From contig CAVXZU010000014.1 of assembly GCA_963766185.1 (NCBI GenBank), forward strand, positions 113,128 to 177,127: a stretch of DNA of 64,000 nt, in the 5' to 3' direction. Shown one piece after another: positions 1,536-53,300 of the stretch. The position numbers and the translations under genes were made by a program. The stretch is from an uncultured delta proteobacterium. Lineage in GTDB: Bacteria > Desulfobacterota > Desulfobaccia > Desulfobaccales > 0-14-0-80-60-11. Below the pieces are notes generated by a model, which was not told where the DNA came from, did not search any database, and was given only the letters and a program-made list of their open reading frames with translations. Position 1 is the stretch's first letter. Every line of letters begins with the position of its first letter.

Positions 1536-2873
<1,338 letters not shown>

Positions 2874-3011
2874 CCCCCGGCTCCCCGTCATGGCGTGTTT
2901 CACCAGGTCGGTTTCAAAATGAAATGCGCCCAAACCCCGCAGTTTCCCGGCTTTCCGGGGTTTTGCCCCGCCACCGCTTTTCCATTATGAAACACCGCTC
3001 TTTCGCCTGTT

Positions 3012-3026
3012 TGGCTATCTAGTTGT
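3012..3026 (+). promoter_or_regulatory. candidate sigma-54 (-24/-12) promoter
   Basis: TGGCTATCTAGTTGT versus consensus TGGCAC-N5-TTGC. GG and TTG are correctly spaced; the -12 element is GT instead of GC. It lies ~50 nt upstream of the USP-like gene and is preceded by GTTTCA/TGAAAC half-sites (2897-2993). Confidence 0.3.
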
Positions 3027-3077
3027 TTTTATAATCTTAATCCCTTTGGCCCGATTGGTGCATTGCTCTTTTGGGAC

Positions 3078-3533
3078 ATGAACAAACGGGTACTCTTAGC
3101 TATCGACCTGGAGACGCCGGATTCCCGGGCCGCCTCTTATGCAGTGCAGTTGGCGGCGCGCCTGAAATTGTCCCTGGTGCTCATGGCGGTGTTTCCCCCC
3201 CGGGCCGGCGACCCCGCTGACCCCGGCGACATTTCCCTGGGGGGCCTGGCCGAAGAGCAGAGCCTGTGGCTGGGAAAGGTCCGGGAGCGCTGCCAGCAGG
3301 AAGGGGTGAGCCTGGAGATCTTCCTGGCGGCCGGGGCCTTCTGCGATGAAGTCCTGGCCTTCGCCCGGGCCCAGAGTTCCTTGCAGTTCATCGTCATGGG
3401 TTGGCCGGAGGGTGCCAGCCGGGAAAAGTACCCCGGCTGCGCCGCGGCCTTGAAAAGTCTGCACGAGCAAATCGGCGGGGAAATTCTCCTGGTGCGCGGC
3501 CAGGGAAAAGTCACCCGCCTGACGAATCTTTAA
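3078..3533 (+). CDS. universal stress protein (UspA)-like protein
   Basis: Start taken at MNKRVLLAIDLETPDS, a typical USP beta1 opening. ~150 aa, ends ...GGEILLVRG. The ATP-binding glycine motif is not clear. Confidence 0.6.
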   Translation: MNKRVLLAIDLETPDSRAASYAVQLAARLKLSLVLMAVFPPRAGDPADPGDISLGGLAEEQSLWLGKVRERCQQEGVSLEIFLAAGAFCDEVLAFARAQSSLQFIVMGWPEGASREKYPGCAAALKSLHEQIGGEILLVRGQGKVTRLTNL

Positions 3534-3561
3534 CGCCACGAGAAGGAGGGGAGAGCGGCAC

Positions 3562-4494
3562 ATGTCCTGGAACCTGTATCTACCACTGGCTGGTAACAGC
3601 ATCAACATCTTGATTCTTTTTGGCCTGGGGGGCGCCGTGGGCTTTCTCTCCGGGCTGTTCGGGGTCGGGGGCGGCTTTCTCATGACGCCGCTGCTGATCA
3701 TGGTCGGGATCCCGTCCACGGTGGCCGCGGCCTCGGACTCCAACCAGATTGTCGCGGCCTCCACCTCCGCTTCCTATGCCCACTACCGCCTGGGGAACGT
3801 GGACTTCAAGATGGGGCTTTACCTCATCATCGGCGGCGTCCTCGGGGGCACCCTGGGGGTGCAATTCATCAAGCTGCTCCGGGCCATGGGCAACGCCGAC
3901 TTCGTCATCAAGATCACCTACGTCATCATGCTGGGCGTCATCGGTTTCTACATGTTTGCCGAGAGCCTCCAGAGCATGCGGAAAAAGCCGGTGGAAACCA
4001 AGCGGGTGGAAGCCCCCGCCAAGGTCTCCCTCTACAACCGCATGATCCAGGCCCTGCCCTACCAGACGAAATTCGAGAAATCGGGCGTGGTCCTCTCCCC
4101 CCTGCTGCCCCTCGTCCTCGGGGTGTTCGTGGGGATCCTGGCGGCCATCATGGGCGTGGGCGGGGGCTTCATCATGGTGCCGGTGATGGTCTATATGCTG
4201 CGCATGCCCATGCACGTGGTGGTGGGCACCAGCCTGGTGCAAATCCTCTTTACCTGCATCAACGTCACCATCATGCAGTCCGCCTCCAACCATACCGTAG
4301 ACCTGATCCTGGCCATTATCCTGCTCCTGGGCTCCACCGTGGGGGCTCAGTTCGGGGTGCGCCTGAGCAAGCGCCTCAAGGCCGACCAGCTCAAGATTCT
4401 CCTGGCTTCCATCGTCTTGCTGGTGATGGTCCAGATGCTGATGAGCCTGGTGCTGCCGCCTCATCTCCTGCTGGCGCATAAAGGCGGGCACTGA
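3562..4494 (+). CDS. TauE/SafE (DUF81) family anion exporter, membrane protein
   Basis: 310-aa ORF with two homologous halves of hydrophobic helices. Each half carries the G-rich motif of the family (GLFGVGGGFLMTPLL; IMGVGGGFIMVPVM). Confidence 0.85.
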   Translation: MSWNLYLPLAGNSINILILFGLGGAVGFLSGLFGVGGGFLMTPLLIMVGIPSTVAAASDSNQIVAASTSASYAHYRLGNVDFKMGLYLIIGGVLGGTLGVQFIKLLRAMGNADFVIKITYVIMLGVIGFYMFAESLQSMRKKPVETKRVEAPAKVSLYNRMIQALPYQTKFEKSGVVLSPLLPLVLGVFVGILAAIMGVGGGFIMVPVMVYMLRMPMHVVVGTSLVQILFTCINVTIMQSASNHTVDLILAIILLLGSTVGAQFGVRLSKRLKADQLKILLASIVLLVMVQMLMSLVLPPHLLLAHKGGH

Positions 4495-4495
4495 G

Positions 4496-5272
4496 ATGAA
4501 AGACCTGGTCCAGTTAAGCCGCAAGGTCGCGTGGTTGGGGTTGGGGTTGTTGCTGGTTGGCACGTTGCCGGCCCGGGCCGCAGAACCGGGGCTCAAGATC
4601 TCGCCCCCCACGGTGCAAATCGGCACCTTCTTTAACGGCCAGACCGTGACGGTCTCGGGAACCATCCCGGCCGGGGCTCAGGCGGTCCTGGAGGTAATGG
4701 GCACCAGCGCCGAGGAACACCTCATGCGCAAAGGCCGCCGGGGGCCCCTGTGGATGAACGTGGGGGAAATCAAGGTCGAGGACGCGCCCTCCCTTTACCT
4801 GGTCATGAGCAGCGCCAAGGAATTGCTCACGGCCGCGCCGGCGGATGCCACCTGGGGCTATCGAGCCCTGGAGAAGCGCATTGTCTTCAGCGGCAAAATC
4901 GAACCCCAGGAGCGCCAGGAGTTCCTGAAGCAATTTCTCGAACTCAAGGAAAGCGAACAGATTTACTCCTCCCGGCCCGGGGCCCTCAAAGTTGCGGCCG
5001 CGGCCGGGGGAGTAAGCGCGGTGACCGCCAGTTTTCCCTTGCCCACCAATACCAGACCCGGCACTTACAAGATCTGCCTGTCGGTGATCGCCAACGGCAA
5101 GGCGGTGAGCAATACCTGCACCGACTTCACGGTTGAGCTGGTGGGTTTCCCGGCCCTGATGGCCCAGCTGGCCTATCAGCACGGGGTCGCCTACGGGGTG
5201 CTGGCGGTGGTCCTGGCCATTGTCGTCGGGTTTGCCATGGGCTTCCTCTTCAAGGGCGGGGGCGGGCATTGA
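4496..5272 (+). CDS. secreted/membrane-anchored protein, probably TIGR02186 (Alph_Pro_TM)-like partner of TauE
   Basis: Starts 1 nt after the TauE stop. N-terminal signal peptide (WLGLGLLLVGTLPARAAEP), C-terminal TM helix (VLAVVLAIVVGFAMGFLF). The family assignment comes from remembered architecture and TauE adjacency, not from a search. Confidence 0.55.
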   Translation: MKDLVQLSRKVAWLGLGLLLVGTLPARAAEPGLKISPPTVQIGTFFNGQTVTVSGTIPAGAQAVLEVMGTSAEEHLMRKGRRGPLWMNVGEIKVEDAPSLYLVMSSAKELLTAAPADATWGYRALEKRIVFSGKIEPQERQEFLKQFLELKESEQIYSSRPGALKVAAAAGGVSAVTASFPLPTNTRPGTYKICLSVIANGKAVSNTCTDFTVELVGFPALMAQLAYQHGVAYGVLAVVLAIVVGFAMGFLFKGGGGH

Positions 5273-5450
5273 GGGCGCGCCCGGCAGCATTTTCGGGTTA
5301 GGCCGAGGTTGCCCGGGCCGCTTTCCGTGTGTATAGTTTGGACGGGGTTCTCTATTCCCCAACCCCCTCCCACCGGGAGAGGGGGAGGGGCAAAAGGACA
5401 CCAACAGTGCATCCCGCCGGCGGTTGCAGCCGGATTAAGGATTAGACCCC

Positions 5451-8033
5451 ATGTGGCAAGTTGTCCAAAATCTCTGGAAGCGGATGCACCGGCCCAAACC
5501 GGACCTGGTGGCCTTTCCGGAGATTTTTGAACATTTCCAGGAGCTGCTGCAGGACCATCAGCGGGTCATGGAAAGGATTGCCGACCTGGGAGAAAAATCC
5601 GGCGGGGAATATATCTTTGACCGCAAGTACCTGATAGACACCACCGAAGAAATCCAGACGCTGCTGCTGCGTATGGTGAAAGGCTTGAATCTCATCACCT
5701 CGAACCGTTATCTGGATCTGTACCAGACCATCGACCACATCTTCATCCCCCTGGGGGCCGAACTCCGGGGACGGCTGATCCTCTCCAAGGAAATGCCCCT
5801 GGTGATCGGCCTGGCCGAAGCTTCCCAGGACCGCCCCGAACTCATCGGCGGTAAAGCCGCCAACCTGGCGGTGGCGATCCAGAACCTGGACCTGCCGGTG
5901 CCGGGCGGCTTCATCATCACCACCCGGGCTTACCGGCTCTTCCTGGAGCACAACCACCTGGAGGAGCGGATCCACGCCCTGCTGGAGAGTTGGGTGGCGG
6001 GGGAGCACGACGCACGCCAGGTCTCACGCCAGATCCAGTACAGCATCCTGGCGGGCGTGGTGCCCCACGAAGTGGCCGGAGAAATAAAGCGCCAGGCCGA
6101 GAAGGGCGGCGGGGACTGGGGCGTCCGCAGCAGCGCCTACGGCGAAGACGGGGAACTGTCTTTTGCCGGCCTCCATGAGAGCCTGCTGCACGTCCCGGCC
6201 CGGGGAGTCATCAAGGCCTATAAGCAGGTCCTGGCCAGTCTCTATTCCCCCGAGGCCCTGGTTTACCGGGAGAAGATGGGGATGCTGGGGGAAGAGGCGG
6301 CCATGGCGGTGCTGTGCCAGGAGATGATCCCCAGCCGGGCCAGTGGGGTCATACACACCCTGGACGTAAGCGGCCAGGAAAGCGACTGCCTGGTCATTTT
6401 TGCCTCCTGGGGCCTGGGGCGCACCGTGGTGGAGGGTAAGGGCCCCACGGACCGCTACGTGGTGGAGCGGGATTTTCCCCACCGCATCCGGTCCCAGGAA
6501 ATCGCCCAGAAAGAAAAACTGTTTCAGGCCATGACCGGCGGGGGTGAGGAGGAAGTGCCGGTCCCGCCGGAGGACCAGGGCCGGGAGACTCTCTCCGAGG
6601 CCACCGTTGAAGCCCTGGGGCGTTGGGCCCTGATTCTGGAGCGCTACTTCAAGCGCCCCCAGGAGATCGAATGCGCCATAGATCAGGCGGGTAACTGTTG
6701 GGTCCTGCAAGCCCGGGCCTTGCAGGTCCCCAAGCCCAAGGTCCCCCTGCGGCAGGATATTTGCGAGTCCTGCGCCCTCTACCCCGTCCTGACCCAGGAC
6801 GTCGGCGTGGTGGCCCATGCCGGGGTGGGCGCCGGCGTCGTGGCCCACGTCAGCACCGATGCGGACATGGACCACTTTCCCGAAGAAGCTGTCCTGGTGA
6901 CCAAATATACGGCCCCGTGGCTGGCCCGCATTGTGCCCAAGGCGGCGGCCATCGTCACGGAGCGGGGTTCCGCCGCCGGGCACCTGGCCACCATCGCCCG
7001 GGAATTCCGGGTGCCCACCCTGGTGGGGGTGGAGGGCGCCATGGAGATCCTGGCGGCCGGCATGAAAGTTACCGTGGATACCAAGCAGCGGACCATCTAC
7101 GAGGGCCGGGTCAAAGAACTGATTCAGTATGAACTGGTCCAGTCCATGGCCTTTGAGGACGCCCCGGAATTTCGGCTGCTCCGGCGGATTTTGGCCCGCA
7201 TCGCCCCGCTCCATTTGCTCGATCCCCAGGACCCGAATTTTACCCCCGGGGGTTGCCAATCCGTCCACGACGTCATCCGGTTCATCCACGAGAAGGCCGT
7301 GGAAGAATTGATGGACCTGCCCCGGTTTGTCAAGCGTTTCAAGGGGGTCAGGATCTTCACCCTGGTCTCCGACATCCCCCTGGGCCTGAAGGTTCTGGAC
7401 CTGGGCGGCGGCATCGCCCCCGAGGCCCAGGGCACCAAGCTCCTGCCGGAGCACATCCGGTCCTGGCCCATGCGGGCCCTGTGGGAGGGTCTGTCCGGTC
7501 CCGGGGTCTGGAGCACCGAACCCGTGCCGGTGGATTTCCAGGGGATGATGTCCAGCATCTCCAAGACCGGAGCTTTTACCTCCGGCGGCAGCACCGTTTC
7601 GGGCTTCAACCTGGCGGTGATCAGCGAAAACTACCTCAATCTGCACCTGCGGTTGGGCTACCACTTTAACCTGGTGGACGCCCGCATGGAGACCGAGGCC
7701 CCCCGCAACCACATCTATTTCCGCTTTGTGGGCGGGGTTACCGACCTCACCCGCCGATCCCGGCGGGCCCAACTCCTGGAAAAGATCTTGTCTCAATTCC
7801 ACTTCAAGGTGGACACCAAGGGCGATCTGGTCGTGGCCAAGGTGCTCCATCTGCCCCGGGAAGATATGGAGCAGCGTCTCCAACTCCTGGGCCGGTTGAT
7901 CGGGTTCACCCGCCAGCTGGATATTCAGCTGCGCAGCGACGAAGACGTTCCGGATTTTGTGGAGGCCTTTTTTCACCAAAACTCCCGGTTAAGGGAGAAG
8001 CCCCCGGAAGGAGGAAGTTATGTCGGAAAATAA
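5451..8033 (+). CDS. PEP-utilising enzyme family protein (PPDK_N ATP-grasp + phosphohistidine swivel domain + unassigned C-terminal ~330 aa)
   Basis: 860-aa ORF. Nucleotide-binding domain motif ELIGGKAANLA...GGFIITT, swivel-domain motif TERGSAAGHLATIAREFRVPTLVG. No canonical PEP/pyruvate TIM-barrel motifs are visible in the C-terminal third. Confidence 0.8.
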   Translation: MWQVVQNLWKRMHRPKPDLVAFPEIFEHFQELLQDHQRVMERIADLGEKSGGEYIFDRKYLIDTTEEIQTLLLRMVKGLNLITSNRYLDLYQTIDHIFIPLGAELRGRLILSKEMPLVIGLAEASQDRPELIGGKAANLAVAIQNLDLPVPGGFIITTRAYRLFLEHNHLEERIHALLESWVAGEHDARQVSRQIQYSILAGVVPHEVAGEIKRQAEKGGGDWGVRSSAYGEDGELSFAGLHESLLHVPARGVIKAYKQVLASLYSPEALVYREKMGMLGEEAAMAVLCQEMIPSRASGVIHTLDVSGQESDCLVIFASWGLGRTVVEGKGPTDRYVVERDFPHRIRSQEIAQKEKLFQAMTGGGEEEVPVPPEDQGRETLSEATVEALGRWALILERYFKRPQEIECAIDQAGNCWVLQARALQVPKPKVPLRQDICESCALYPVLTQDVGVVAHAGVGAGVVAHVSTDADMDHFPEEAVLVTKYTAPWLARIVPKAAAIVTERGSAAGHLATIAREFRVPTLVGVEGAMEILAAGMKVTVDTKQRTIYEGRVKELIQYELVQSMAFEDAPEFRLLRRILARIAPLHLLDPQDPNFTPGGCQSVHDVIRFIHEKAVEELMDLPRFVKRFKGVRIFTLVSDIPLGLKVLDLGGGIAPEAQGTKLLPEHIRSWPMRALWEGLSGPGVWSTEPVPVDFQGMMSSISKTGAFTSGGSTVSGFNLAVISENYLNLHLRLGYHFNLVDARMETEAPRNHIYFRFVGGVTDLTRRSRRAQLLEKILSQFHFKVDTKGDLVVAKVLHLPREDMEQRLQLLGRLIGFTRQLDIQLRSDEDVPDFVEAFFHQNSRLREKPPEGGSYVGK

Positions 8034-8409
8034 GCTCAGGGTACTGGTCCTGGACGATGAACCCATTGTCTGCAAACGCCTGCAGCCGGCGTTGGAAAAG
8101 TTGGGATTCGAAGTGGACACCTTCACCCAAAGCGTCGAGGCCATGCATCAGGTTCAACAGTCCGCCTACGACATCGTCATCACGGACCTGAAGATGAAAG
8201 AGGTCGACGGTATGCGCTTTCTGGAGGAAGTCAAAAAGCAGCGCCCGGAAACCGAAGTGATTGTCATCACGGGGTTCGCCACCATGGAAACCGCCAAGCA
8301 GTCATTCCAAAAGGGCGTCTTCGATTTCATCGCCAAGCCGTTCAAATTGAGCGAGATCCAGGACGTGGTGACCCGGGCGGCGGCCAAGATTCGCGGGGCG
8401 GGAGCCTGA
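8020..8409 (+). CDS. single-domain response regulator (CheY-like receiver)
   Basis: 129 aa. LRVLVLDDEP..., phospho-acceptor region DIVITDLKMKEVDG, conserved K in AKPF. The start overlaps the PEP-utilising gene end by 14 nt. Confidence 0.9.
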   Translation: MSENKLRVLVLDDEPIVCKRLQPALEKLGFEVDTFTQSVEAMHQVQQSAYDIVITDLKMKEVDGMRFLEEVKKQRPETEVIVITGFATMETAKQSFQKGVFDFIAKPFKLSEIQDVVTRAAAKIRGAGA

Positions 8410-8476
8410 AGGGAGCCGGCGTCGGCCCGGGCACTCCTGTTTGCCACACCTCATACTGATTAAGGGGGAAGTCTCT

Positions 8477-9277
8477 ATGCTGAAAACCCTGGTAGCCATC
8501 GAAGTGGACCTGGCCTCCAGTTTTGCCATCCGCTATGCCTGTGACCTGGGCAACCTCATTCCCATGGAGCTGTACCCGGTCTATGTCAAGGCGCCGCCGC
8601 CGGAAGTGCCGGTTACGGGCACGGGTTGGGTCCGGCATACCTGGGAACGGGAGATCGTCGAAATGGGCAAGGAGGAGATCCATGAAATGCTGGCCTCCGA
8701 GCAGGAAACCTGCCCCATGCTCCAACAACCCCGGGTAATCTACGGCGATCGCGATTACGAACTGGTCAAGATCGAGAGCCAGGAGGCCTTCGATTTATAC
8801 GTGGAAGGGGCGCCCTATCCCTTCACCCCGGCTAACATCCAGAGGCGCCTGCACGCCAAGTTCTACCAGAAGCTCGCCTGCCCCCTCATCTGGCTGAGGG
8901 GATTGCGGAAGGTCCACCAGGCCATGGTGGTGTGCCCGGATCTGGCCGGCGCCCGGCTAGCGCTGTCGGCCATGCAGAAACTCTGGGCCGGATGCTCCAT
9001 CCCGTTGCACCTGGCCCTGCCGCCCCAGGAAGGTTACGGCGGTCCCGGCGACGCCCTGCGGCAGGAGGCCCGGAAAGTTATGGCCGCCATGGAGGCCGCG
9101 GGGTGTACCCTGGAGGTAAAAGAAGTGGCTGACTGGTCCTCCGGGGGGCCGGCTCCGTCCACGTTTAAGGACTACGGCCTGGTGGCCGTGCCCCTGCCCC
9201 GGGCGGTGAAAAAAGATGATATCCGCTTGCAGTGGCTGGCCCAGGTAAAAAACCCTTTGATGCTGGTGCCGTATTGA
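8477..9277 (+). CDS. hypothetical protein with tandem USP-like halves
   Basis: Start at MLKTLVAIEVDLAS, preceded by RBS AAGGGGGA. A second half begins VHQAMVVCPDLAG. The resemblance to USP alpha/beta fold openings is weak. Confidence 0.5.
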   Translation: MLKTLVAIEVDLASSFAIRYACDLGNLIPMELYPVYVKAPPPEVPVTGTGWVRHTWEREIVEMGKEEIHEMLASEQETCPMLQQPRVIYGDRDYELVKIESQEAFDLYVEGAPYPFTPANIQRRLHAKFYQKLACPLIWLRGLRKVHQAMVVCPDLAGARLALSAMQKLWAGCSIPLHLALPPQEGYGGPGDALRQEARKVMAAMEAAGCTLEVKEVADWSSGGPAPSTFKDYGLVAVPLPRAVKKDDIRLQWLAQVKNPLMLVPY

Positions 9278-9388
9278 GCCCGGCGGCGAGCCCGGGAGGC
9301 GGTTTTTTTCCGACTAAGGACTGCAACATGCCTGACGATAACGATAAAACATATCTCTTCCCTTCAGGGTGAAGAGCTCATCAAGGCC

Positions 9389-10294
9389 ATGGAGGAATGG
9401 GCCGACCGCCGGGAACATCTGGCCGAGGACCGGACCGCCTTGTCCCAGTTCCGAACGAAGCTGGCCGAAGAACGCACTGCCCTGGCGCACAAGCGCACCG
9501 ACCTGGCCGAGGGCCGCACTAAACTCGCCAACGACCGCACCGGTCTAGCCAACAAGCGCACCGAATTGGCCGAGGGGCGGACCAATTTGGCCAATAAAAG
9601 GACCGACCTGGCTGAAGGCCGCACCCAATTAGCCGGGAAAAGAACTGAACTGGCCGAGGGCCGCACCAAACTGGCGGGGACCCGGACGGAGTTAGCCTCA
9701 AATCGCACCACCTGGGCCCAGGAGCGCACCGCCCTCTCCACCCGGCGCACGGAATTGGCCGACGACCGGACCAGACTGGCCGGTGACCGGACCCAATTGG
9801 CCAATCAGAGGACCGAGTTGGCCCAGGGCCGCACCGACCTGGCCCAGAAAAGGACCGGCCTGGCCGAATCCCGGACCAACTGGTCCCAGTCCCGGACCGA
9901 ATGGGCCGAGATGCGCAACAAGCTGGCGGAAATCCGCACTCGCATGAGCGGCGCCCGGACCGGCCTGGCCCAATCCCGGACCAACCTGGCCCAATTTCGC
10001 ACCCTGTTGGCCAAGCAACGCACCGAGCTCTCTTACCTGCGCACCGGCCTGGGCTTCATCGCCCTGGGCACCTTCTTCACCCGGCTCTTCGGCCTCGGGC
10101 CCTGGTCCGCCATTGACGCGGTCATTACCGGGGTGGGGGTGCTGAGCATCGGCATGGCCATCAAACTGTTCGTCAAATCCTACCGGGTCGAGCGCAAGAT
10201 GATGCCCCGCCTCGAGAAGGAGCTGGCCCCGGAAGCCGTGGAAAAGCGGGTGGAGGAGTCCATCCGGTCCCATAAATTCAGTTCGTTCACCTAG
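9389..10294 (+). CDS. DUF202 (YidH)-like membrane protein with ~30 tandem RTxLAxx heptads
   Basis: 301-aa ORF. Residues 13-222 are uninterrupted heptads (EDRTALS QFRTKLA EERTALA HKRTDLA EGRTKLA ... KQRTELS YLRTGLG). These are followed by hydrophobic helices FIALGTFFTRLFG and AVITGVGVLSIGMAI. The last heptads plus the TM region resemble the DUF202 ERTxLAWxRT motif. Confidence 0.8.
   Translation: MEEWADRREHLAEDRTALSQFRTKLAEERTALAHKRTDLAEGRTKLANDRTGLANKRTELAEGRTNLANKRTDLAEGRTQLAGKRTELAEGRTKLAGTRTELASNRTTWAQERTALSTRRTELADDRTRLAGDRTQLANQRTELAQGRTDLAQKRTGLAESRTNWSQSRTEWAEMRNKLAEIRTRMSGARTGLAQSRTNLAQFRTLLAKQRTELSYLRTGLGFIALGTFFTRLFGLGPWSAIDAVITGVGVLSIGMAIKLFVKSYRVERKMMPRLEKELAPEAVEKRVEESIRSHKFSSFT
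9425..10054 (+). repeat. 21-bp periodic coding tandem repeat (about 30 units)
   Basis: DNA period of 21 nt (cgcacc/cggacc...ctggcc). The periodicity also gives repetitive antisense ORFs (9364..9804, VRPSANSVR...). Confidence 0.85.
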
Positions 10295-10312
10295 CCCGTA
10301 AAGGGAGGACCG

Positions 10313-11749
10313 TTGTTCCGAACCGCGATCACCATACGCAAAAGAATCATCATCGCCGCGGTCATTCAAGCCATCGTCATCTGTCTGATCTGCGGGTTCG
10401 GCTATTTATCCTTCAAGGCGGTCTTAACCAAATTACAGGCCATTGAAATCATTGATGATGTTAATATTTCCTTTTTGGAAATGCGCAAGGCTGAAAAAAA
10501 TTACTTTCTTTACCAGGACCAGGGCTCCCTGGATGAATTACTGCAAATCGGCAAAAACCGGTATGATGTGCTCCAGGCTTCACGGTATTACCTGGTGTCC
10601 GGTTTACATGGCTTAAGCGGCCAGGAATACGCCAGTTTGCTGCATAATCTCAGACATTATTTGGAATTGGTTCAGCAAGCTCTCCACAATAAACGGGTTC
10701 CCCCGCCAGCCGAGGCGGAAATCAGAAAGCTGGGCCATGAACTTACCCAACAATCCTCCACCCTCCTGGCCCGGGAACGCAAGACCGTCAGTTATATCGT
10801 CAGCTATAACCTTATTATGCTCATTATCTCCCTGGGGATCATTTTCATCGTCCAGGTCGTTCTTTGGAGGTACTTTTTCCGGTTTATCATTCAAGAGATT
10901 GCCATCATGGAAAAAATGATCAAAATGGTCTCCGAAGGCCGCTTCCACGAGGTGGCCGTCCGGACCATCACCCCCAATAACGAAATTCAGGTGGCCGTCC
11001 AGGCCATCACCGATATGGCCCGGGAACTGGAAAAACGGGAGCAGGAGCTGATGCAGTCCGGGAAGCTGGCATCCCTGGGGGTCCTGATCTCCGGCGTGGC
11101 CCATGAACTGGGGAATCCTTTGAACAATATTTCGCTCATCGCCCAGACCTACATTAGTCTTTACGACCTGTTGGGCGATGAGGACAAAAAAAATTACATG
11201 GAAGATGTTTATACCCAAAGCGAGCGTATTAAAAAAATTGTGGAAAATCTCCTGGATTTCTCCCGCCAAAAAAAGCAAGAATTAAAGGACATCCAGGTTG
11301 GGGACCTCGTGCAGCGCAGCCTGGGGCTGGTGGCCAACCAGTTAAAAATCTCCAAGGTCAGACATACGATCACCATCGCCGACTCTCTGCCCATGATTTC
11401 CGTGGACCCGCCCCAGATCCAACAGGTGCTGGTCAATCTGTTTATTAACGCCATTCAGGCCATGGAAGGCGGGGGCGAATTATTCATCGCGGCGTCCTAT
11501 GACCCGGAGCACGACATGGTTGTCCTGACCGTGAGGGATACCGGCACCGGCATCAAAAAGGAGATTCTGCCCAATATTTTCGATCCGTTTTTTACCACTA
11601 AGAGCACCAAAGGCACCGGCCTGGGATTATCTGTGAGCTACGGCATCATCCGGCAGCATCACGGGGAAATCTCGGTGGAAAGCCAAGAGGGCCAGGGCAC
11701 CACGTTTATTATCAAGATACCTGCTCAGGGCAAAGATAAAGGGGAGTAA
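10313..11749 (+). CDS. sensor histidine kinase (paralog of 61..1507)
   Basis: 478 aa, TTG start with RBS AGGGAGG. Two TM segments, HAMP-like linker, H-box SGVAHELGNPLNN, N-box LVNLFINAIQAM, G-boxes DTGTGI and GTGLGLS. Confidence 0.92.
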   Translation: MFRTAITIRKRIIIAAVIQAIVICLICGFGYLSFKAVLTKLQAIEIIDDVNISFLEMRKAEKNYFLYQDQGSLDELLQIGKNRYDVLQASRYYLVSGLHGLSGQEYASLLHNLRHYLELVQQALHNKRVPPPAEAEIRKLGHELTQQSSTLLARERKTVSYIVSYNLIMLIISLGIIFIVQVVLWRYFFRFIIQEIAIMEKMIKMVSEGRFHEVAVRTITPNNEIQVAVQAITDMARELEKREQELMQSGKLASLGVLISGVAHELGNPLNNISLIAQTYISLYDLLGDEDKKNYMEDVYTQSERIKKIVENLLDFSRQKKQELKDIQVGDLVQRSLGLVANQLKISKVRHTITIADSLPMISVDPPQIQQVLVNLFINAIQAMEGGGELFIAASYDPEHDMVVLTVRDTGTGIKKEILPNIFDPFFTTKSTKGTGLGLSVSYGIIRQHHGEISVESQEGQGTTFIIKIPAQGKDKGE

Positions 11750-11751
11750 CC

Positions 11752-12114
11752 ATGGCCAAGAAAATTATCGTGATCGATGATGAAAAAATCGTGGGTGACA
11801 TGGCGAAAAAGATCTTGCAGGCCGAAGGCTATGAGGTGGACACCTTTACCGACAGTGAGCTGGCCCTGGAGGCCATCCGGGCGCATTCTTACGATCTGGT
11901 GATCACCGACCTGAAAATGGAAAACGTCAGCGGTATGGATATCTTGAAAGAAGTGAACCGGCTCTATCCGACCACCCGGGTGATTATGCTCACGGCCTAT
12001 GCCACCCTGGATGCCACCATCGAGGCCATCCGGGAGCGCATTTACGACTTTTTCCCGAAGCCGGTGAAAATCGAGGAATTGAAACAATCGGTCAAGAAAG
12101 CCTTGGGGGATTGA
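11752..12114 (+). CDS. single-domain response regulator (CheY-like)
   Basis: 120 aa. KIIVIDDEK, DLVITDLKMENVSG, PKPV. Starts 2 nt after the kinase stop. Confidence 0.9.
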   Translation: MAKKIIVIDDEKIVGDMAKKILQAEGYEVDTFTDSELALEAIRAHSYDLVITDLKMENVSGMDILKEVNRLYPTTRVIMLTAYATLDATIEAIRERIYDFFPKPVKIEELKQSVKKALGD

Positions 12115-12171
12115 CCCGACTGGCTCCGAGGTCCACTGCGGATTTCGTCAATCAAAGGGAGGGGAAGGACC

Positions 12172-13038
12172 ATGAAGATTTTATTTGCCGGAGATGAAAA
12201 TCCTTACAGCGCCTATGCGCTTAATGAAGTAATCCGGTTGGCCACCAACACCTGGGCCGACGTGACCCTGCTGTCGGTAGCCCCCGGTGAAACCTCTGCC
12301 AAACCCGGCGAGGACCATCCCCTGGCCCAGGCCTTACACGGGTACCGGGATAACTTTTTGACCAGCGCCGGGGGCGAGGGCTCACCCTTTGCCGTGGGAG
12401 CGCCGCGGTTTGAGTGGCTGCAAATGAAGGGCGGCCAGTGGGAAGAGCTGCTGGTGGCTCGAGGGGCTAAAAAAGACGTGAAGGTCCGCCTGAGGCTGGG
12501 CAATGAAGCCCAGGAAATCCTGGCGGAAGCCCGGGATGAAGAAAGCGACCTCATCGTGCTGGGGTGCACCAAGGGGGCGCAGTGCATCTGGCAAGGCTCG
12601 GCCCCGGTGCCCCAGAAAGTGATCAACGATGCCGGCTGTTCCGTGCTCCTGGTCAAAGAAGACCAGCCCATCAGCCGCATCCTGGCCTGCCTGGACCAGA
12701 GCTACATCAGCCAGGATTCCCTGGAGATGATCAACCAGATGGCCACGATTCACGGGGCCCAACTGGAGTTGATCGGGCTTTCCCAGGGAGGCGACATGAA
12801 AAAGGACGTGTACCGGCGGCTTATCGAGATCGGCGATTATTACGAGGATCGCCAGATCAAAGTGAGCACCCGCTTAACCGAGATTGCCGACTTTGAAAAC
12901 TTCATCGACAAAGAATTGCAGCAGGATCTCCTGGCCCTGTTTATGGGCAAGAAATCCCTGCTGGACCGGTTCTATCCCCGGGATTGGGCCGGACGCTTTG
13001 TGAGCAAGTGCCAGACGTCGGTTTTGGTGATGCGTTAA
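12172..13038 (+). CDS. tandem-domain universal stress protein
   Basis: 288 aa. MKILFAGDENPYS..., DLIVLGCTKG, CSVLLVK. The second half opens with ISRILACLDQS. Confidence 0.75.
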   Translation: MKILFAGDENPYSAYALNEVIRLATNTWADVTLLSVAPGETSAKPGEDHPLAQALHGYRDNFLTSAGGEGSPFAVGAPRFEWLQMKGGQWEELLVARGAKKDVKVRLRLGNEAQEILAEARDEESDLIVLGCTKGAQCIWQGSAPVPQKVINDAGCSVLLVKEDQPISRILACLDQSYISQDSLEMINQMATIHGAQLELIGLSQGGDMKKDVYRRLIEIGDYYEDRQIKVSTRLTEIADFENFIDKELQQDLLALFMGKKSLLDRFYPRDWAGRFVSKCQTSVLVMR

Positions 13039-13044
13039 TCTTAA

Positions 13045-13236
13045 GCCTGGGGCGATAGGGAATGCCAAAAGTTTTTTCCGTTATAACCTGCTCCAAGAGC
13101 CTAAATCCCCCCTAACCCCCCTTTTTCAAAGGGGGGAACTTAGCGAAATCGCTTCGAAAGTCCCCCTTTGAAAAAGGGGGATTTAGGGGGATTTAAAAAG
13201 CAGCAAACAGGAGAAATTTTTGGCAAACGCTATATA
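13045..13236. repeat. MITE/REP-like palindromic intergenic element
   Basis: Imperfect terminal inverted repeats (gcgatagggaatgccaaaagttttttcc / ggagaaatttttggcaaacgctatat). Internal GC hairpins aaatcccccctaacccccctttttcaaagggggg ... ccccctttgaaaaagggggatttaggggga. Related end motifs occur at 56157-56170 and 59185-59220. Confidence 0.6.
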
Positions 13237-13292
13237 ATCCGGAAAGCCGGCTACGGTTCCGGAGGCTTCAGTATACGAACGAGGTGATACCT

Positions 13293-14141
13293 ATGAAAAT
13301 CCTGGTCGCGGTGGATAAAAGCGAAGAGTCGCAGCAGGCCCTGCGCTACACCTGCCATTTGCTGGAACATTTCGAGGCGGACGTTGACGCCCTCTATGTC
13401 AAACCCAATTTAGTCGACTCCGTAGCCGAAAGCTCTTATGCCCCCTTCACTACCCGGGAGGATGTGGAAAAGTCCATCGAATCCGAGGCGGCAACAACCG
13501 TGGAGGAAATTTTTGAGGCCTGCGAGATCTGCCTGGGGGGTAAAGTGCCTTGCGAGCCCCTGGTGGCCGTGGGCGATCCCGCCGACGAGATCCTGAACAC
13601 CGCCAATGAAGGCATGTACGACCTGATCGTGCTGGGCTCCCAGGGCCGCTCCACGTTCCGGGGGTTTTTACTGGGCTCGGTGCATGCCAAGATTCTTCAC
13701 CATGCCCTGCAACCGGTGCTGCTCATGCGCAATTTCCGGCCGGTCCAGAAAATCCTGGTGGCCTACCGGGGGTCCCAATGCGACCAGGGCGCCCTGGAAT
13801 TCATCGCCCCGCTCTTTGCCAAGCATAAACCGGAAATCACCATACTCCACGTCCAGGAAACCGCGTTGGGCGAAACCCCCGAATTCGCCGAGGCCTGTCT
13901 GCTCACCGGGGAGGACACCTTAAAGAAATACGGCTATACCCCCAGCAAAAAATTGGCCCAGGGCGACTTTGTGGACGAAATCCTCAAGGCGGTGGCCGTG
14001 GAACGCTATGACCTGCTGGTCCTGGGGGCCTATGGACACAAGCGGCCTAAGTATCTGAAGATGATCAGTGACGAGGCCCTTAACCTGGTGCGGCTGTCTA
14101 CCCGCCCGGTCCTGGTGTTTCGGGATAAGACCGAAGCATAA
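13293..14141 (+). CDS. tandem-domain universal stress protein
   Basis: Start MKILVAVDKSEES with RBS GAGGTG. DLIVLGSQGRSTFRGFLLGSV, and a second half with DLLVLGAYGHKRP...VLVFR. Confidence 0.85.
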   Translation: MKILVAVDKSEESQQALRYTCHLLEHFEADVDALYVKPNLVDSVAESSYAPFTTREDVEKSIESEAATTVEEIFEACEICLGGKVPCEPLVAVGDPADEILNTANEGMYDLIVLGSQGRSTFRGFLLGSVHAKILHHALQPVLLMRNFRPVQKILVAYRGSQCDQGALEFIAPLFAKHKPEITILHVQETALGETPEFAEACLLTGEDTLKKYGYTPSKKLAQGDFVDEILKAVAVERYDLLVLGAYGHKRPKYLKMISDEALNLVRLSTRPVLVFRDKTEA

Positions 14142-47310: not shown

Positions 47311-50300
47311 ATGGTGTTGAGCAGCGAGAGCCCTCGTGAGCCCTTGCTTCGGCTGAGGTCTTACCTTCCGGGAGGGGACTTGGGGCGGAAGTATGCCGGC
47401 GACGACCTGCCGTTGCGATCGGAGTTGTTCAGCGCCGAGCAGATGGAGCAGCATGGCAAGATCCTGGCGGGCTTGCACCAGCTGAGCCCGGAACGTCCCC
47501 GGGACCGGCTGCTGACACGGCTGGCAGAGAATGAAGACCTCCTCATTGGGGTCCGCGGCCTGTTGACGGAGGCGGTCAAGGCCAATCGCCGAATGACGCC
47601 GGCCGGGGAATGGCTGCTCGACAACTTTTATCTGATCGAAGAACAGATTCGCACCGCCAAGAGGCATTTGCCCAAAGGTTACAGCCGGGAACTCCCTCGC
47701 CTGCTGAATGGTCCGTCGGCCGGGCTGCCCCGGGTGTATGACCTGGCGCTGGAGACGATCTCACACGGCGATGGACGGGTGGACCCGGAAAGTCTCAGCA
47801 GTTTCGTTGCCGCCTACCAGACCGTCATACCCCTGAAGTTGGGGGAATTGTGGGCCATCCCCATCATGCTGCGCCTGGCTCTGATCGAGAACCTGCGGCG
47901 CGTGGCCGCCCGGATTGCCGCCGACCGGACCGACCAAAACCATGCCGATTACTGGGCGGACCAGATGACGGAGATCGCCGAGACCGACCCCAAGAGCCTG
48001 ATCCTGGTGATCGCCGACATGGCGCGGTCGAACCCGCCGATGGTGAGCTCGTTCGTGGCGGAACTGACGCGCCGGTTGCAGGGGCAGGGCCCCGCCCTGG
48101 CCTTGCCCCTCACCTGGATCGAGCAGCGACTTGCCGAAAGCGGGTGGACGATCAAGAAGTTGGTACAGGCAGAGAACCAACAACAAGCCGCGGATCAGGT
48201 CTCCATGAGCAATAGTATCGGCAGCCTCCGTTTCCTGGGGGCGATGGACTGGCGCTCCTTCGTCGAGACGCTGAGCGTGGTCGAGCAGACCCTGCGTACG
48301 GATCCTCACGGCGTCTATGGCACGATGAATTTTGCCACCCGTGACCGCTACCGACATGTCGTGGAGAAAATCGCCAAGACCAGCCCGCACTCCGAAAGCG
48401 AGATCGCGCTCCAGGCGATCCAATTGGCGCACGAGGGCGCGGCCAGGAACGGCGACGACCGCACGGCCCATGTCGGCTTTTATCTGATCGATGCGGGATT
48501 AACGCAGCTCGAGGCGGCCGTGGCCAGGCGCCGCTCCTTCTTGGAGACGGTGTGCAGTGTGACCTGCCGGTTCCCTTTGCTGCTGTATGGGGGTCCGATC
48601 ACGCTGCTTTCGGTAATCATTGCCGGCGGCTTCCTGGCGCAGGCCCATGCCGGGGGGGTATCCGGTTGGCCGCTGGCGCTGATCGCCATCCTCTCGCTTC
48701 TAGGCGCCAGTCATCTGGCAATCGCCCTGGTGAACTGGCTGGCGACGTTGCTGGTGACGCCGCACCCACTGCCGCGCCTGGACTTTTCCGCCGGAATTCC
48801 CGTGGACTCGAGGACCCTGGCGGTGGTGCCGACCATGCTCACGAGCCCCCAGAATATCACGGCTCTGATCGAGGCGCTTGAAGTCCGGTTCCTGGCAAAC
48901 CGGGACGAAAACCTGCACTTCGGTCTGCTGACTGATTTTCGGGATGCGGACGCAGAAACCCTGCCGGAAGACGAGTCGCTGCTGAGGCTGGCCCGGCAGG
49001 GCATCGAAGCGTTGAACAAAAAGTACCGGAACGCCAAAGGCGATATTTTTTTCCTGTTCCATCGCCCTCGCCGCTGGAATCCCCGGGAGCGGATTTGGAT
49101 GGGTTACGAGCGCAAGCGGGGCAAGCTCGCGGAACTGAATTCCTTGTTGCGCGGGGGCTCCAGGGAGTGTTTCTCGCTCATCGTCGGGGCGACTGCAGCC
49201 TTATCGGGCGTGAAGTACGTGATCACCCTGGATACCGACACGCAACTGCCCCGGGACTCGGCCTGGCAGCTGGTGGGAGCCATGGCGCACCCCTTGAACC
49301 GGGCGCACTTACGACGCGGACCAGCAGCTGGTGCTGCAAGGGCTACGGCATCCTGCAGCCCCGCGTGGCCGTGAGCCTGCCCGGCACGAACCGGTCGCGT
49401 TATGCGCAACTCTGGGGGAGTGATCCGGGCATCGATCCGTATACCCAGGCCGTTTCCGATGTTTACCAGGATCTGTTCCAGGAAGGCTCGTTCATCGGCA
49501 AGGGCATCTACGAGGTCGATGCGTTCGAGCAGGCGCTCCACGGGCGCTTCCCCGAAAACCGGATTCTCAGCCACGATCTTCTGGAAGGGTGTTACGCCCG
49601 GGCCGGGTTGTTGAGCGATGTGCAGCTCTACGAGGAATACCCCTCGCGCTATAGCGCCGACGTAAGCCGCCGGTACCGTTGGATCCGCGGGGATTGGCTT
49701 ATTGCGCGGTGGCTGCTGCCGGGGGTTCCCGGCCCTGGCCCACACCTTCAGAAGAATCCGCTCTCGGGTCTATCCCGATGGAAGATTTTCGACAACCTGC
49801 GCCGCAGTCTCGTGGCCCCGGCGTTGACGCTCCTGTTGCTCCTGGGCTGGACGGTCCTGCCATCAGCCTGGTTTTGGACCTTGTCGGTGATCGGGATCAT
49901 CCTGATTCCTTCTTTGATGAGCTCTCTTCTGGATATGTTTCGGAAGCCGGGCGATGTGCTTCTGGGCCAGCACCTCACTGGCATAGGGCGCTCGACCGTC
50001 CGGCACCTGGCCCAGGCCGCCTTTACGCTGGTGTGTCTCCCCTATGAGGCATTTTTCAGTCTGGATGCGATCATCCGCACGAGCGTCCGGCTGCTGATTA
50101 CCCACAAGCGGCTTCTTGAATGGAATCCGTCGGGCGATTCCGATCGCCCCGGCCGCGGGGATCTGGTCGGCTCCTATCAAACGATGTGGATCGGCCCCTT
50201 TGTCTCTGTGGCCGCGGTAATCTACCTCGCGTGTGCGAGGCCAGCCGTGTTATTGACGGCTGGGCCCATACTGGGCCTCTGGTTGGCTTCGCCGGCTATC

Positions 50301-53300
50301 GCCTGGTGGATCAGTCGACCGCTCCTGCGCCGCGCCGCCAGGTTGACGGCAGACCAAACCCTCTTCCTCCAGAAGATTGCCCGAAAGACCTGGGCGTTTT
50401 TCGAGACCTTCGTCGGCCCGGAAGATCATTGGCTGCCGCCCGATAACTATCAGGAGCATCCCGTGGCCAGGGTGGCGCACCGCACCTCGCCGACCAACAT
50501 GGGGCTGGCGCTCCTGGCGAATTTATCCGCCTACGACTTCGGCTACATTTCAGCCGGACGACTTGTCGAACGCACGGCGAACACGCTCCACACCATGGCA
50601 GCTTTGGAGCGGCACCGGGGCCACTTCTACAACTGGTACGACACGCAGTCTCTGCAGCCTTTGTTGCCCATCTACATTTCCACCGTGGACAGCGGCAACC
50701 TGGCGGGGCATCTGCTGACCTTGCGGGCCGGTCTGCTCGCCCTTCCCGATCAGCCGATCCTGGGGGGACGCTGGTTTGACGGACTGATTCACACCCTCAA
50801 GATTATTGTGGACGCGGCGGCAGGAGCCGCTCTGGCCCCGCTGGCCCAACTGCAAAAAGATCTGGCGTCAGCAGCCGCGGCCCCGCCAACTACGCTGGCG
50901 GCGGTGCGGCTGTGCCTCGAGGGGCTGGCGGCGTCCGCCGAGGTGATGGTCCGCAGCCTCGATGCCGATCCCGAGAGCCAGGTGCGGTGGTGGACGGATA
51001 TCCTGTCACGGCAGTGCCGGGATGGACTCGATGAGTTGACCTTTCTGGCGCCATGGACCTCGTTGCCGGCTTCGCCGGGCAATCTCAGCGAGTTCCCGGG
51101 TATCGACGGGAATCCGACGCTCCGCCAATTGGCCAGGCTTGAGGTGAATCTGCTGCCGGCCATCGCGCCTCAACTCGCTTTGGCGGTAACGCCCGAGGAG
51201 TGCGCCCGGTTTGATAAGCTTCAAGGCCTCATCACGGAGGCCAGCCGCCGGGCCGGCGCCAGGATTGCGGCTATTGAAGAGCTGGCCCGGCAATCGAGCG
51301 AATTCGCCCGTATGGAGTATGATTTCCTGTTCGACAAGGCGCGTCACTTAATGGCTATCGGCTACAATGTGAGCGAGCGTCGGCTGGACTCGAGTTACTA
51401 CGATCTGCTGGCTTCGGAAGCGAGATTTCCCACGTTCGTGGCGATTGCCCAAGGTGAGTTGCCCCAGGATAGCTGGTTTGCCCTGGGACGTCTCCTCACC
51501 ACCGTGGGGGGAGAATCGCTGCTCCTGTCGTGGAGCGGGTCGATGTTCGAATACCTCATGCCGCTCCTGGTAATGCCGACCTACGAACACACGCTGCTCG
51601 ACCAGACCTGTAAAGTGGCGGTGGCGAGGCAGATCGAGTATGGCAAAAAGCGCGGGGTGCCGTGGGGCATTTCAGAATCCGGTTACAATGCCATCGATAT
51701 TCATCTCAACTACCAGTACCGCGCCTTCGGCGTGCCCGGCCTGGGACTCAAGCGCGGCCTGGCCGAGGACCTGGTCATCGCCCCGTATGCCTCGGCACTG
51801 GCGTTGATGGTGGCGCCCGAGGCGGCCTGCTCGAATCTCGAGCACCTGACCGCGGCAGGGTTTGAAGGGAAATTCGGCTTCTATGAAGCCATCGACTACA
51901 CGCCGTCGCGCCTGCCCCGGGGCAAATCCAGCGCCGTGGTTCGGTCCTTCATGGCCCATCACCAGGGCATGAGCCTCCTCTCCCTGGCCTATCTGCTCCT
52001 GGACCGGCCGATGCAGCAGCGCTTCGAATCGGACCCGTTGTTCCAGTCGACCTTGTTGTTGCTCCAGGAGCGGATTCCCAAAGCCACGACTTTTTATGTG
52101 CACACCGAAGAGATCACCGGCCCACAGCCGACCTCCAGTGATGCGGAGACCCCGGTGCGGGTTTTCAACAGCCCCGATACACCGATACCGGAAGTGCAGT
52201 TGTTGTCGAATGGCAGGTATCATGTGATGATCACCAACGCCGGCGGCGGTTACAGCCGCTGGAAGGATATCGCGGTCACCCGTTGGCGCGAAGACAGTAC
52301 CTGCGACAACTGGGGCACGTTCTGTTACCTCCGGGACGTGACGAGCGGGGAGTTCTGGTCCACCGCCTATCAGCCGACCCTGAAGCGATCCGGGAATTTT
52401 GAGGCCATCTTCTCGGAAGGGCGAGCCGAGTTCCGTTGCCGCCAACAAGACTTTGACGCCTATACCGAGATCGTGGTTTCCCCCGAAGACGATATCGAGT
52501 TGCGCCGCATCACCATTACCAATCGCGCCCGGACCACAAGAGAGATCGACGTCACGAGTTACGCCGAAGTAGTCCTGGCGCCGCCAGCCGCGGATGCACT
52601 GCATCCGGCGTTCAGCAATCTCTTTGTGCAGTCCGAGATTATCCGCCCCCGGCACGCCATCCTCTGCACACGCCGGCCCCGCTCCCTCGACGAGCGGGCG
52701 CTCTGGATGTTTCACCTGATGGCGGTGCATGGGGCGGAGATCGGTGAGATTTCCTACGAGACTGACCGCATGCGGTTCATCGGCCGGGGCGGGACCGTCG
52801 CTGATCCAGAGGCGATGCGCGGTCCAGAGGGGCTCTCGGGCGCCGAGGGCTCAGTGTTGGACCCGATTGTCGCCATCCGGTACCGCCTCAGGCTCGATCC
52901 GGGAGCCTCGGTAACGGTCAATGTGGTCTCCGGCATCGGCGAAACTCGCGAGGCGTGCCTGGGCCTGGTAGAGAAATACCAGGACCGGCGTCTGGCGGAC
53001 CGCGTCTTTGATCTGGCCTGGCCGCATAACCAGGTGGTTTTGCGGCAGATCAACGCCTCAGAGGCAGATGCTCAGCTCTACTGTCGCCTGGCGAGCTCGG
53101 TAATCTATGCCAATGCGACGCTGCGAGCCGACCCCGGTGTCCTCATCAAAAACCGCCGGGGGCAATCCGGTCTCTGGGGTTACTCCATTTCCGGGGATTT
53201 GCCCATCGTGCTGCTGCAGATTGAAGATCCGGCCAATATCGACCTGGTGCGTCAACTCATACAGGCCCATGCCTACTGGCGCTTAAAAGGATTGGCGGTT

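Follow-up and report, generated by a model that had tools for sequence, protein, structure and literature searches.

An array of arginine–threonine heptads of variable length in a DUF202-family membrane protein

Within a 64,000-nucleotide stretch of DNA from an uncultured delta proteobacterium, a relative of sulfate reducers from soil or wetland (the whole stretch is called the window hereafter), one gene encodes a protein in which a seven-residue unit of the pattern xxRTxLA recurs some thirty times before the chain enters the membrane. A preliminary description, made from the letters of the window, took this array for a massive internal expansion of a motif of the DUF202 family, and the locus raises the question of whether so many copies are real, whether they are peculiar to this gene, and what a ladder of arginine and threonine might do ahead of a membrane anchor. 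Among the relatives of the DUF202/YidH proteins, which are widespread, only the pore of the eukaryotic polyphosphate polymerase VTC has been characterised. A signature heptad multiplied up to 41 times without loss of register is very unusual chemistry for a long helical rod, and it provides a natural system for studying the function of an 'arginine ladder' stalk and the effect of its length. If the array were only a passive spacer, it would be a neat example of repeat-number evolution of limited wider importance.

The answer proposed here is that the juxtamembrane heptad of DUF202, normally present in one or two copies at the N-terminal end of the first transmembrane helix (TM1), would have been serially duplicated in register to give 21–41 units, and that the protein may form a homo-oligomeric cytoplasmic helical stalk of variable length that continues TM1 and serves the adjacent two-component system as its effector or partner. 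This proposal is tentative, and our confidence in it stops a little short of an even balance. Judged against its relatives, the array is typical of a conserved clade in a known family and not a singular expansion.

The heptad array and its variation among relatives

Residues 13–222 of the open reading frame (ORF) as read in the window (nt 9425–10054) comprise 30 uninterrupted heptads in a single register, so that the round figure of the preliminary description proves exact, and two hydrophobic helices follow. Position 3 is arginine in all 30 units and position 4 is threonine in 29 (asparagine in the other), while leucine occupies position 6 in 26 units (three Trp, one Met) and alanine position 7 in 24 (five Ser, one Gly). 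A degenerate thirty-first unit, DRREHLA, stands just before them. The column-consensus score of the array is 130 of a possible 210, against 45 ± 2.8 (maximum 58) in 20,000 residue shuffles. At the level of DNA the 21-nt period gives only 57 per cent matches (TRF), and the copies are only 60–76 per cent alike, which makes collapse of the array during assembly unlikely. The invariant arginine is encoded by both of its codon families (CGC 16, CGG 9, AGG 3, CGA 1, AGA 1). Given that synonymous codons vary at invariant residues, conservation acts on the protein, and the array of the window is no fresh product of slippage.

Independent reads bear on whether the array is genuine. Logan unitigs from independent soil metagenome runs are colinear with the window across it (record 10 of run X2 spans 9244–10011 with three mismatches, and records 4 and 5 of run X1 together span 9371–10077), and because these short-read unitigs run through the repeat, the array is not an assembly artefact. 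Related long-read contigs in ENA, at ∼91 per cent nucleotide identity, carry 23 and ∼27 units, with frameshifts inside the array of a kind common in long-read assemblies. Contigs from wetland metatranscriptomes of related strains cover the whole gene cluster, and one RNA-derived contig (10037–10374) runs across the stop codon of the array gene into the kinase gene behind it; these data are consistent with co-transcription of the two genes, with the reservation that the contigs may include DNA carry-over. A scan for promoters and terminators performed no better than on shuffled sequences, and it placed no plus-strand terminator between the two genes.

The same comparisons move the start of the gene. 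Relative to short-read DNA unitigs and RNA-derived contigs, the window has single-base homopolymer insertions at ∼9303, at 9324 and at 9346–9351. Dropping one base of the AAAA run near 9346–9351 brings the ATG at 9328 into frame and recovers the N-terminus that all orthologues have, written MPDDNDKHISSLQGEELIKA or MPDDNDKHISSLQGEELIKAMEEWA. The protein is thus really ∼321 aa long and starts at 9328; the start at 9389 that had been taken before is an artefact, arising because the 1-nt insertion shifts the ATG out of frame. The head restored in this way (∼25 aa) is in frame in 28 orthologues, where it shows 64 per cent mean pairwise identity and a mean charge of −4.6. Long ORFs that read the array in another frame or from the complementary strand, at 9364..9804 (−), 9698..10369 (−) and 9901..10116 (+), were rejected as genes, being by-products of a repeat whose composition is poor in stops; the genuine plus-strand frame holds the Pfam match, and its insertions and deletions are whole codons in multiples of seven. 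Frameshifted public gene calls (P0040, P0112 and P0022) run into these spurious frames.

Relatives are numerous. A word-indexed protein search returned 176, mostly named DUF202/YidH and mostly with 12–20 RT units, and an exhaustive profile search over 1.84 billion representatives yielded 1253 matches at E <= 0.001, 149 at E <= 1e-10 and 23 at E <= 1e-30. Scanning one genome per species identified 37 loci in Desulfobaccales/Desulfobacca, Syntrophales, Desulfohalobiaceae, Desulfothermus okinawensis, Desulfonauticus, Desulfofervidaceae and Thermodesulfatator, and about 30 species-level genomes retain an array that is in frame and holds its register. When heptads are counted backwards from the LRTG motif in one register, the window has 31, and the complete long-array orthologues (28, mainly from Desulfobaccales) have 21–41, in one unbroken register from the head to TM1. 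The length polymorphism that the preliminary description proposed to look for is therefore present, with insertions and deletions that are all multiples of seven residues, and neither the window nor the orthologues show a stutter or stammer in the heptad periodicity. Across the 870 units of 29 proteins (the 28 orthologues and the window), position 3 is arginine in 99 per cent, position 4 threonine in 92 per cent, position 6 leucine in 85 per cent and position 7 alanine in 83 per cent or serine in 14 per cent, with positions 1, 2 and 5 polar and variable.

Other DUF202 subfamilies contain 6–16 such units (for example EHRTDLS...ERTLMSWIRT). Because of these, and of the 21–41 units of the orthologues, expansion of the motif is recurrent in the family, and the number of units in the window is ordinary for its clade. 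The expansion that was described at first therefore stands, but not as something peculiar to this gene, since its 31 units fall in the middle of the range. The preliminary description had held that homologues showing this repeat number to be common and already described would refute it; common it is, but no description of the array was found in the literature under DUF202/YidH, heptad or arginine coiled coils, or the motif strings. One paper retrieved there (PMC10434189) matched DUF2023 and DUF2027 only, not DUF202.

Both ends of the protein are conserved, with only the middle of the array varying in length. The first four heptads show 82 per cent mean pairwise identity (68 per cent at the variable positions b, c and f) and the ten nearest the membrane 79 per cent, the latter with a mean charge of +8.2; the middle heptads carry +0.55 charge per heptad. 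The middle may thus be a length-adjustable spacer that links the head and the first four heptads to the basic ten heptads, the membrane hairpin and the C-terminal tail.

How the array grows can be read from its closest and its longest relatives. Nearest to the window are L011 and L010, both metagenome-assembled genomes (MAGs) named 'uncultured delta proteobacterium'; L011 appears to belong to the same species, its flanking genes being 93–98 per cent identical in amino acids, and its array is two heptads shorter. In a related wetland population (run X4) a 63-nt deletion (9761->9825) removes exactly three heptads. The longest arrays (L025 5929–7101, L024 2035–3162 and L012 5953–7026) contain duplications of an 8-heptad (168-nt) block and a 42-nt super-repeat of two heptads, with block copies in L025 and L024 at 77–79 per cent nucleotide identity, and this structure points to growth by unequal recombination of multi-unit blocks instead of slippage of single units.

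The membrane module and the predicted stalk

The membrane end of the protein matches Pfam DUF202 (PF02656) above the cut-off, the corrected 321-aa protein scoring 34.4 bits. The match begins at residue 204, inside the array, and the arginine ladder runs in register into TM1 (R204, R211, R218, A225, R232), which bears out the idea that the array arose by multiplying the juxtamembrane DUF202 motif in register. The last two, KQRTELS and YLRTGLG, constitute the canonical ERTxLAxxRT motif itself, and the segment entering TM1 (KQRTELS-YLRTGLG-FIALG, residues 209–227) is invariant in alignments A1–A3. A short loop (GLGPW) separates TM1 from TM2. The invariant columns of the hairpin in the alignments are R232 (in TM1, at heptad position 3), F234, G235 and D243; R232 and D243 stay invariant even in distant DUF202 subfamilies, suggesting a pair of charges close to the outer membrane face with a role beyond anchoring. 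The turn from TM1 through the loop to TM2 (10082–10117, residues 232–243) reads R-x-F-G-x-G-x-W-x-x-x-D.

YidH and the VTC subunits have three transmembrane helices, whereas this protein has two hydrophobic segments and then a hydrophilic tail. The missing TM3 is a difference between subfamilies, and membership in PF02656 stands, since the Pfam model covers TM1 and TM2 only. The tail is roughly neutral, and a receiver (REC) domain occupies its place in receiver-fused relatives. Given that the protein has no signal peptide and a strongly basic N-terminal part, and that REC follows TM2 in those relatives, the positive-inside rule would place both termini in the cytoplasm. NCBIfam returned sub-threshold coiled-coil noise only (SMC, Rad50 and similar), and other Pfam matches (FBF1, ATG14, TPR_MLP1_2 and others) lay below their cut-offs and were set aside as compositional.

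The protein thus resembles YidH/DUF202 members such as E. coli YidH in its above-gathering match and in its sequence of ERTxLAxxRT-type motif, TM1, short loop and TM2, and public sources label its relatives 'DUF202 domain-containing protein' or 'YidH'. Unlike typical members, the array clade has the motif 21–41 times instead of once or twice and two transmembrane helices instead of three, and it adds the acidic head, the conserved C-terminal tail and a fixed, operon-like linkage to a histidine kinase and a receiver. YidH itself was a D-alanine exporter candidate in a screen, without demonstrable transport (PMC10299036).

AlphaFold2, run on a single chain with a 16-sequence alignment, predicts a continuous helix over residues 2–234, a five-residue loop and helices at 240–279 and 281–298, with a mean predicted local distance difference test score (pLDDT) of 83.7 and values above 90 over residues 90–180. 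The prediction fits the long helix or stalk that had been suggested for the array. At a helix rise of 0.148–0.15 nm per residue, such a helix, continuous with TM1, would reach about 32 nm into the cytoplasm in the window, and 22–43 nm in relatives.

The preliminary description had also held that adjacent leucine and alanine do not fit a classical coiled coil, a judgement that proves too strong. On a 3.5-residue period, positions 6, 3, 7 and 4 lie at 257, 309, 0 and 51 degrees, so the conserved face is contiguous and reads L-R-A-T in the heptad order g-d-a-e, with the polar positions 1, 2 and 5 at b, c and f. Four conserved positions on one face are the pattern of α-helical barrels under the rules for Type-2 coiled coils (PMC8503928), and the conserved stripe has the footprint of a wide interface of this type, with unusual chemistry. 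Unbroken heptads do run along the predicted helix (30–31 units in the window). On a straight helix a stripe with a period of 3.5 residues winds left-handed, as supercoiled bundles use. It is most likely, under the stalk proposal, that the chains pair as a homo-oligomeric coiled coil in which the L6-R3-A7-T4 stripe forms the interface or axis, with b, c and f turned to the solvent.

Designed CC-Type2 peptides and α-helical barrels (PMC8503928) share with the array a strict heptad in which g, a, d and e are specified and b, c and f are polar, together with small residues (Ala or Thr) at the flanking positions that set helix spacing. A design of this kind, sc-apCC-6-SLLA, was also the best match of the family profile among PDB sequences, though a non-significant one (E = 0.018). 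The array differs in having alanine and an invariant arginine at the central positions, a and d, which in barrels are filled by hydrophobic residues (Leu/Ile), and in being 7–10 times longer than the Type-2 designs.

Natural rods offer partial parallels. The stalks of trimeric autotransporter adhesins contain N@d layers ([IV]xxNTxx), polar layers that hold anions in the core, and the array is like them in a polar residue recurring at d, threonine at e and a long repetitive stalk; those stalks have asparagine, not arginine, and are extracellular trimers, so no homology is implied. In Braun's lipoprotein Lpp and the streptococcal M proteins the number of heptads varies by whole units and sets a physical distance, but they work in other compartments, have classical hydrophobic cores and are unrelated in sequence to the array.

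Several observations weigh against a homo-oligomeric stalk tied to signalling. Hydrophobic residues do not occupy both a and d, only L6 and A7 being apolar: with the stripe centred, a is alanine and d arginine, and with it shifted, a is arginine and d leucine, so that arginine stands in the core or on the axis of every heptad, which is chemically unusual. Glycine is frequent at heptad position 2 (16 per cent in the window). The AlphaFold2 model covers one chain and no oligomer. When compared with the PDB by Foldseek, the full model gave generic long-helix matches only (best E = 0.17), and a model of the hairpin (pLDDT 75) gave generic helical hairpins, none at E <= 0.001. With two transmembrane helices against the three of YidH and VTC, the protein does not allow the oligomer geometry of VTC simply to be copied. 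The RNA evidence consists of assembled contigs from related strains with possible carry-over of DNA, and distant array-bearing DUF202 proteins (in Acidobacteriota and Desulfomonilaceae MAGs) have no two-component neighbours, so the signalling link may be specific to the clade.

Competing forms of the array

If the stripe is an interface, the chains might pair in the opposite sense. Two molecules anchored ∼30 nm apart could pair their arrays antiparallel as a strut that follows the membrane on its cytoplasmic side, with arginine packed against leucine and small alanines allowing close Alacoil-like contact; each chain would bring its acidic head and first heptads up to the very basic membrane-proximal heptads and C-terminal tail of the other. 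An antiparallel homodimer would automatically tolerate conserved ends around a freely varying middle, the charge of the head (−4.6) complements that of the last ten heptads (+8.2), position 7 is always small, and VTC offers a precedent in an acidic helix that latches onto the positive mouth of its channel. However, a rod lying parallel to the membrane would have to suit lipid or solvent on every side, and AlphaFold2 gave no hint of pairing, though as a monomer prediction only. We regard this arrangement as unlikely.

Yeast Vtc1 (its sequence verified against PDB 8i6v_A) matches PF02656 at residues 24–85 with 63.9 bits from model position 1, which corresponds to Vtc1 residue 24 and to window residue 204; from this shared model start, K24 and R31 of Vtc1 are equivalent to R204 and R211 of the window protein, at heptad position 3. 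Like the array, Vtc1 has these residues heptad-spaced ahead of TM1, R31 lying within NERTFLS, an xxRTxL[AS] unit. Cryo-electron microscopy of VTC shows five TM1 helices lining the polyphosphate pore, a pair of positive rings, made by K24 and R31, that attract polyphosphate at the cytoplasmic vestibule, and a constriction at M42, at heptad position 7 (10.1101/2023.01.27.525886). By analogy, the equivalence supports an axial orientation of the stripe of arginine and alanine. A further likeness is control by cytoplasmic signalling domains, SPX in VTC and the REC and MshEN links in the bacterial proteins; the SPX-VTC-DUF202 architecture is also noted elsewhere (PMC12388464). VTC (Vtc1, Vtc3 and Vtc4; 7YTJ, 8I6V) differs in its two positive rings instead of thirty and its three transmembrane helices, and it assembles as a heteropentamer topped by a catalytic domain.

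Taken further, this comparison would make the array an arginine-lined conduit: a VTC-like TM1 ring prolonged by 21–41 heptads into an electropositive barrel or rail of 20–40 nm for a polyanion such as polyphosphate, a parallel barrel with rings of arginine (d) and alanine (a) alternating along its lumen, gated by the kinase and receiver as the output of a cross-phylum module of histidine kinase, REC, phosphoenolpyruvate (PEP)-synthase-like dikinase and Usp. The equivalence of R204/R211 to the axis-facing rings of VTC, the Type-2 barrel pattern of the conserved face and the net positive charge of the heptads all speak for it; the invariant R232 and D243 hint that the hairpin is more than an anchor, and the REC and MshEN fusions described below mark DUF202 as a regulated output. 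Yet TM3, which is part of the subunit interface in VTC, is missing here, the TM1 helices of VTC splay towards the cytosol so that their prolongation need not close a tube, and at least five guanidinium groups per layer of a narrow lumen would be unfavourable without bound anions. Similarity to Vtc1 is also weak: hhalign gave a probability of 6 per cent for the window profile, a weak match in which KQRTELS aligned with NERTFLS, and Foldseek ranked the hairpin's match to Vtc1 (9umg_A) thirty-seventh, with E = 2.2 and 21 per cent identity. Querying the PDB by sequence and by profile, with the C-terminal module or with family profiles, brought up no VTC protein and nothing significant. No polyphosphate gene adjoins the array gene in the loci inspected. 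We hold a conduit to be quite improbable, below the strut.

The array may instead work alone, as a monomeric single α-helix (SAH)-like spacer or tether that keeps the head off the membrane. The isolated long helix of the AlphaFold2 model, the abundance of charge (45 K+R and 28 D+E in 217 residues) and the variable length would all suit it. SAH domains are stabilised by Glu-Lys/Arg pairs at i->i+4 (and i->i+3), but the invariant arginine here has only leucine or alanine at i±3 and i±4, so the ER/K pattern is lacking; the L, A and T kept so strictly along one face would have no role in such a helix, and glycine is common (14 of 210 residues). A lone helix is thus about as improbable as a conduit.

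Still less probable is an amphipathic helix on the membrane surface, its arginine and threonine on anionic head groups and its leucine and alanine dipping into the bilayer to sense lipids or curvature. The canonical motif does sit at the membrane interface before TM1, and the basic stripe is flanked by leucine and alanine; but with an exact seven-residue period the stripe rotates ∼−20 degrees per heptad, ∼600 degrees over 30 units, and for this reason no single face can keep to a flat membrane. Known surface-lying repeats use 11-residue periods, and the hydrophobic moment is small, leucine and alanine being its only contributors.

An assembly artefact or a functionless low-complexity expansion, to which the homopolymer errors nearby and the relatives' long-read contigs with frameshifts inside the array might lend colour, is hardly credible given short-read unitigs that span the array at equal length, the divergence of its DNA copies, the in-frame arrays of about 30 species-level genomes, the diversity of synonymous codons and transcription.

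Gene neighbourhood and further observations

The features of the array gene and its neighbours are collected in Table 1. The genes from 1536 to 14141 all lie on the plus strand, and the histidine kinase, with two N-terminal transmembrane segments, starts 19 nt past the array gene. The array gene had been placed between two modules of His kinase and response regulator; only the downstream gene proves to be a HisKA kinase, and upstream lie a PEP-synthase-like protein, a receiver and a Usp-like protein, with no kinase.

Table 1. Features of the array gene and neighbouring genes in the window (positions in nucleotides, residues of the ORF as read).
Feature	Position	Strand	Details	Basis
Sigma-54 response regulator	1536-2873	+		
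Usp	3063-3533	+		
TauE	3562-4494	+		
Alph_Pro_TM	4496-5272	+		
PEP-synthase-like protein	5451-8033	+	PPDK_N/PEP-utilizers	
Stand-alone REC (RR1)	8020-8409	+		
Usp-like protein	8441-9277	+	278 aa; no Pfam hit	
Array gene	9328-10294	+		
Acidic N-terminal head, true 5' end	9328..9403	+	MPDDNDK(H)ISSLQGEELIKAMEEWA; out of frame in window	sequence, translation
ORF as read in window	9389..10294	+	301 aa; internal Met of head to stop	translation
First four heptads	9404..9487	+	DRREHLA EDRTALS QFRTKLA EERTALA; orthologous between species	
Middle of array	9488..9844	+	unit number variable: 17 heptads in window, 7-27 in orthologues	
Ten membrane-proximal heptads	9845..10054	+	QKRTGLA ... KQRTELS YLRTGLG; strongly basic	
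Pfam DUF202 (PF02656)	9998..10165	+	residues 204-259; model 1-60 of 68	34.1 bits vs cut-off 23.4
TM1, hydrophobic helix 1	10043..10099	+	residues 219-237; continuous with array	hydropathy, AlphaFold2
TM2, hydrophobic helix 2	10106..10174	+	residues 240-262; invariant D243	hydropathy, AlphaFold2, alignments
C-terminal tail, predicted cytoplasmic	10175..10291	+	..ERKxxxxLEKELAPEAVExRxEE..SHKFxSF; conserved	57% mean pairwise identity
Histidine kinase	10313-11749	+	HisKA, HATPase_c	
Stand-alone REC (RR2)	11752-12114	+	partner of kinase	
Two Usp proteins	12172-13038, 13284-14141	+		

The triad of array gene, kinase and REC is kept in about 35 of the 37 orthologous loci, and the upstream genes are kept in most Desulfobaccales and in Desulfothermus. 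In another lineage, array-DUF202 proteins (P0052 and P0074) bear a REC domain joined on behind the hairpin; that of P0074 is 40 per cent identical to RR2 and 38 per cent to RR1, and the REC-fusion locus retains TauE, Alph_Pro_TM and two PEP-synthase-like genes. Triple-DUF202 proteins carry a fused MshEN or have MshEN downstream, and in a Thermoleophilia MAG such a protein is followed by MshEN, a kinase, REC and a PEP-synthase-like gene. REC and MshEN serve as input domains, and the regulated output is therefore probably DUF202 together with its array. The oligomeric stalk proposed above would be a membrane effector or partner of the neighbouring kinase and its stand-alone REC, which probably docks on the C-terminal tail. 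This context, of kinase, receiver and PEP-synthase-like gene together with the REC and MshEN fusions, gives a first testable handle on bacterial DUF202 as a regulated membrane effector.

A set of genes recurs beside DUF202 proteins, namely a HisKA kinase, a stand-alone REC and a PEP-synthase-like PPDK_N/PEP-utilizers protein of ∼850 aa whose C-terminal third is unassigned (5451–12114 in the window; L005/L044, L047–L049 and L052), often with Usp, TauE, Alph_Pro_TM or MshEN as well. It spans Desulfobacterota, the REC-fusion loci and the Thermoleophilia MAG, and it may represent an undescribed signalling module. The co-oriented cluster of the window holds three Usp-family paralogues in addition to the 278-aa Usp-like protein, whose Desulfothermus counterpart has a faint Usp match only.

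Shorter arrays also occur beside the long ones. A paralogue in L042, from the same MAG as L011, is 215 aa long with ∼15 heptads and belongs to the class of P0004–P0024; kinase neighbours are missing in L042, and a kinase and REC lie downstream in L003/L004. Eukaryotic repeats of the ERTELAE type (for example P0095 of Tuber indicum) were rejected as homologues, being without DUF202 and attributable to convergence only. P0001, P0009, P0017, P0018, P0042 and P0041 bear the precomputed Pfam labels PF28019 and PF27734. Elsewhere in the window, an ORF of 2315 aa occupies 49095–56042 on the plus strand.

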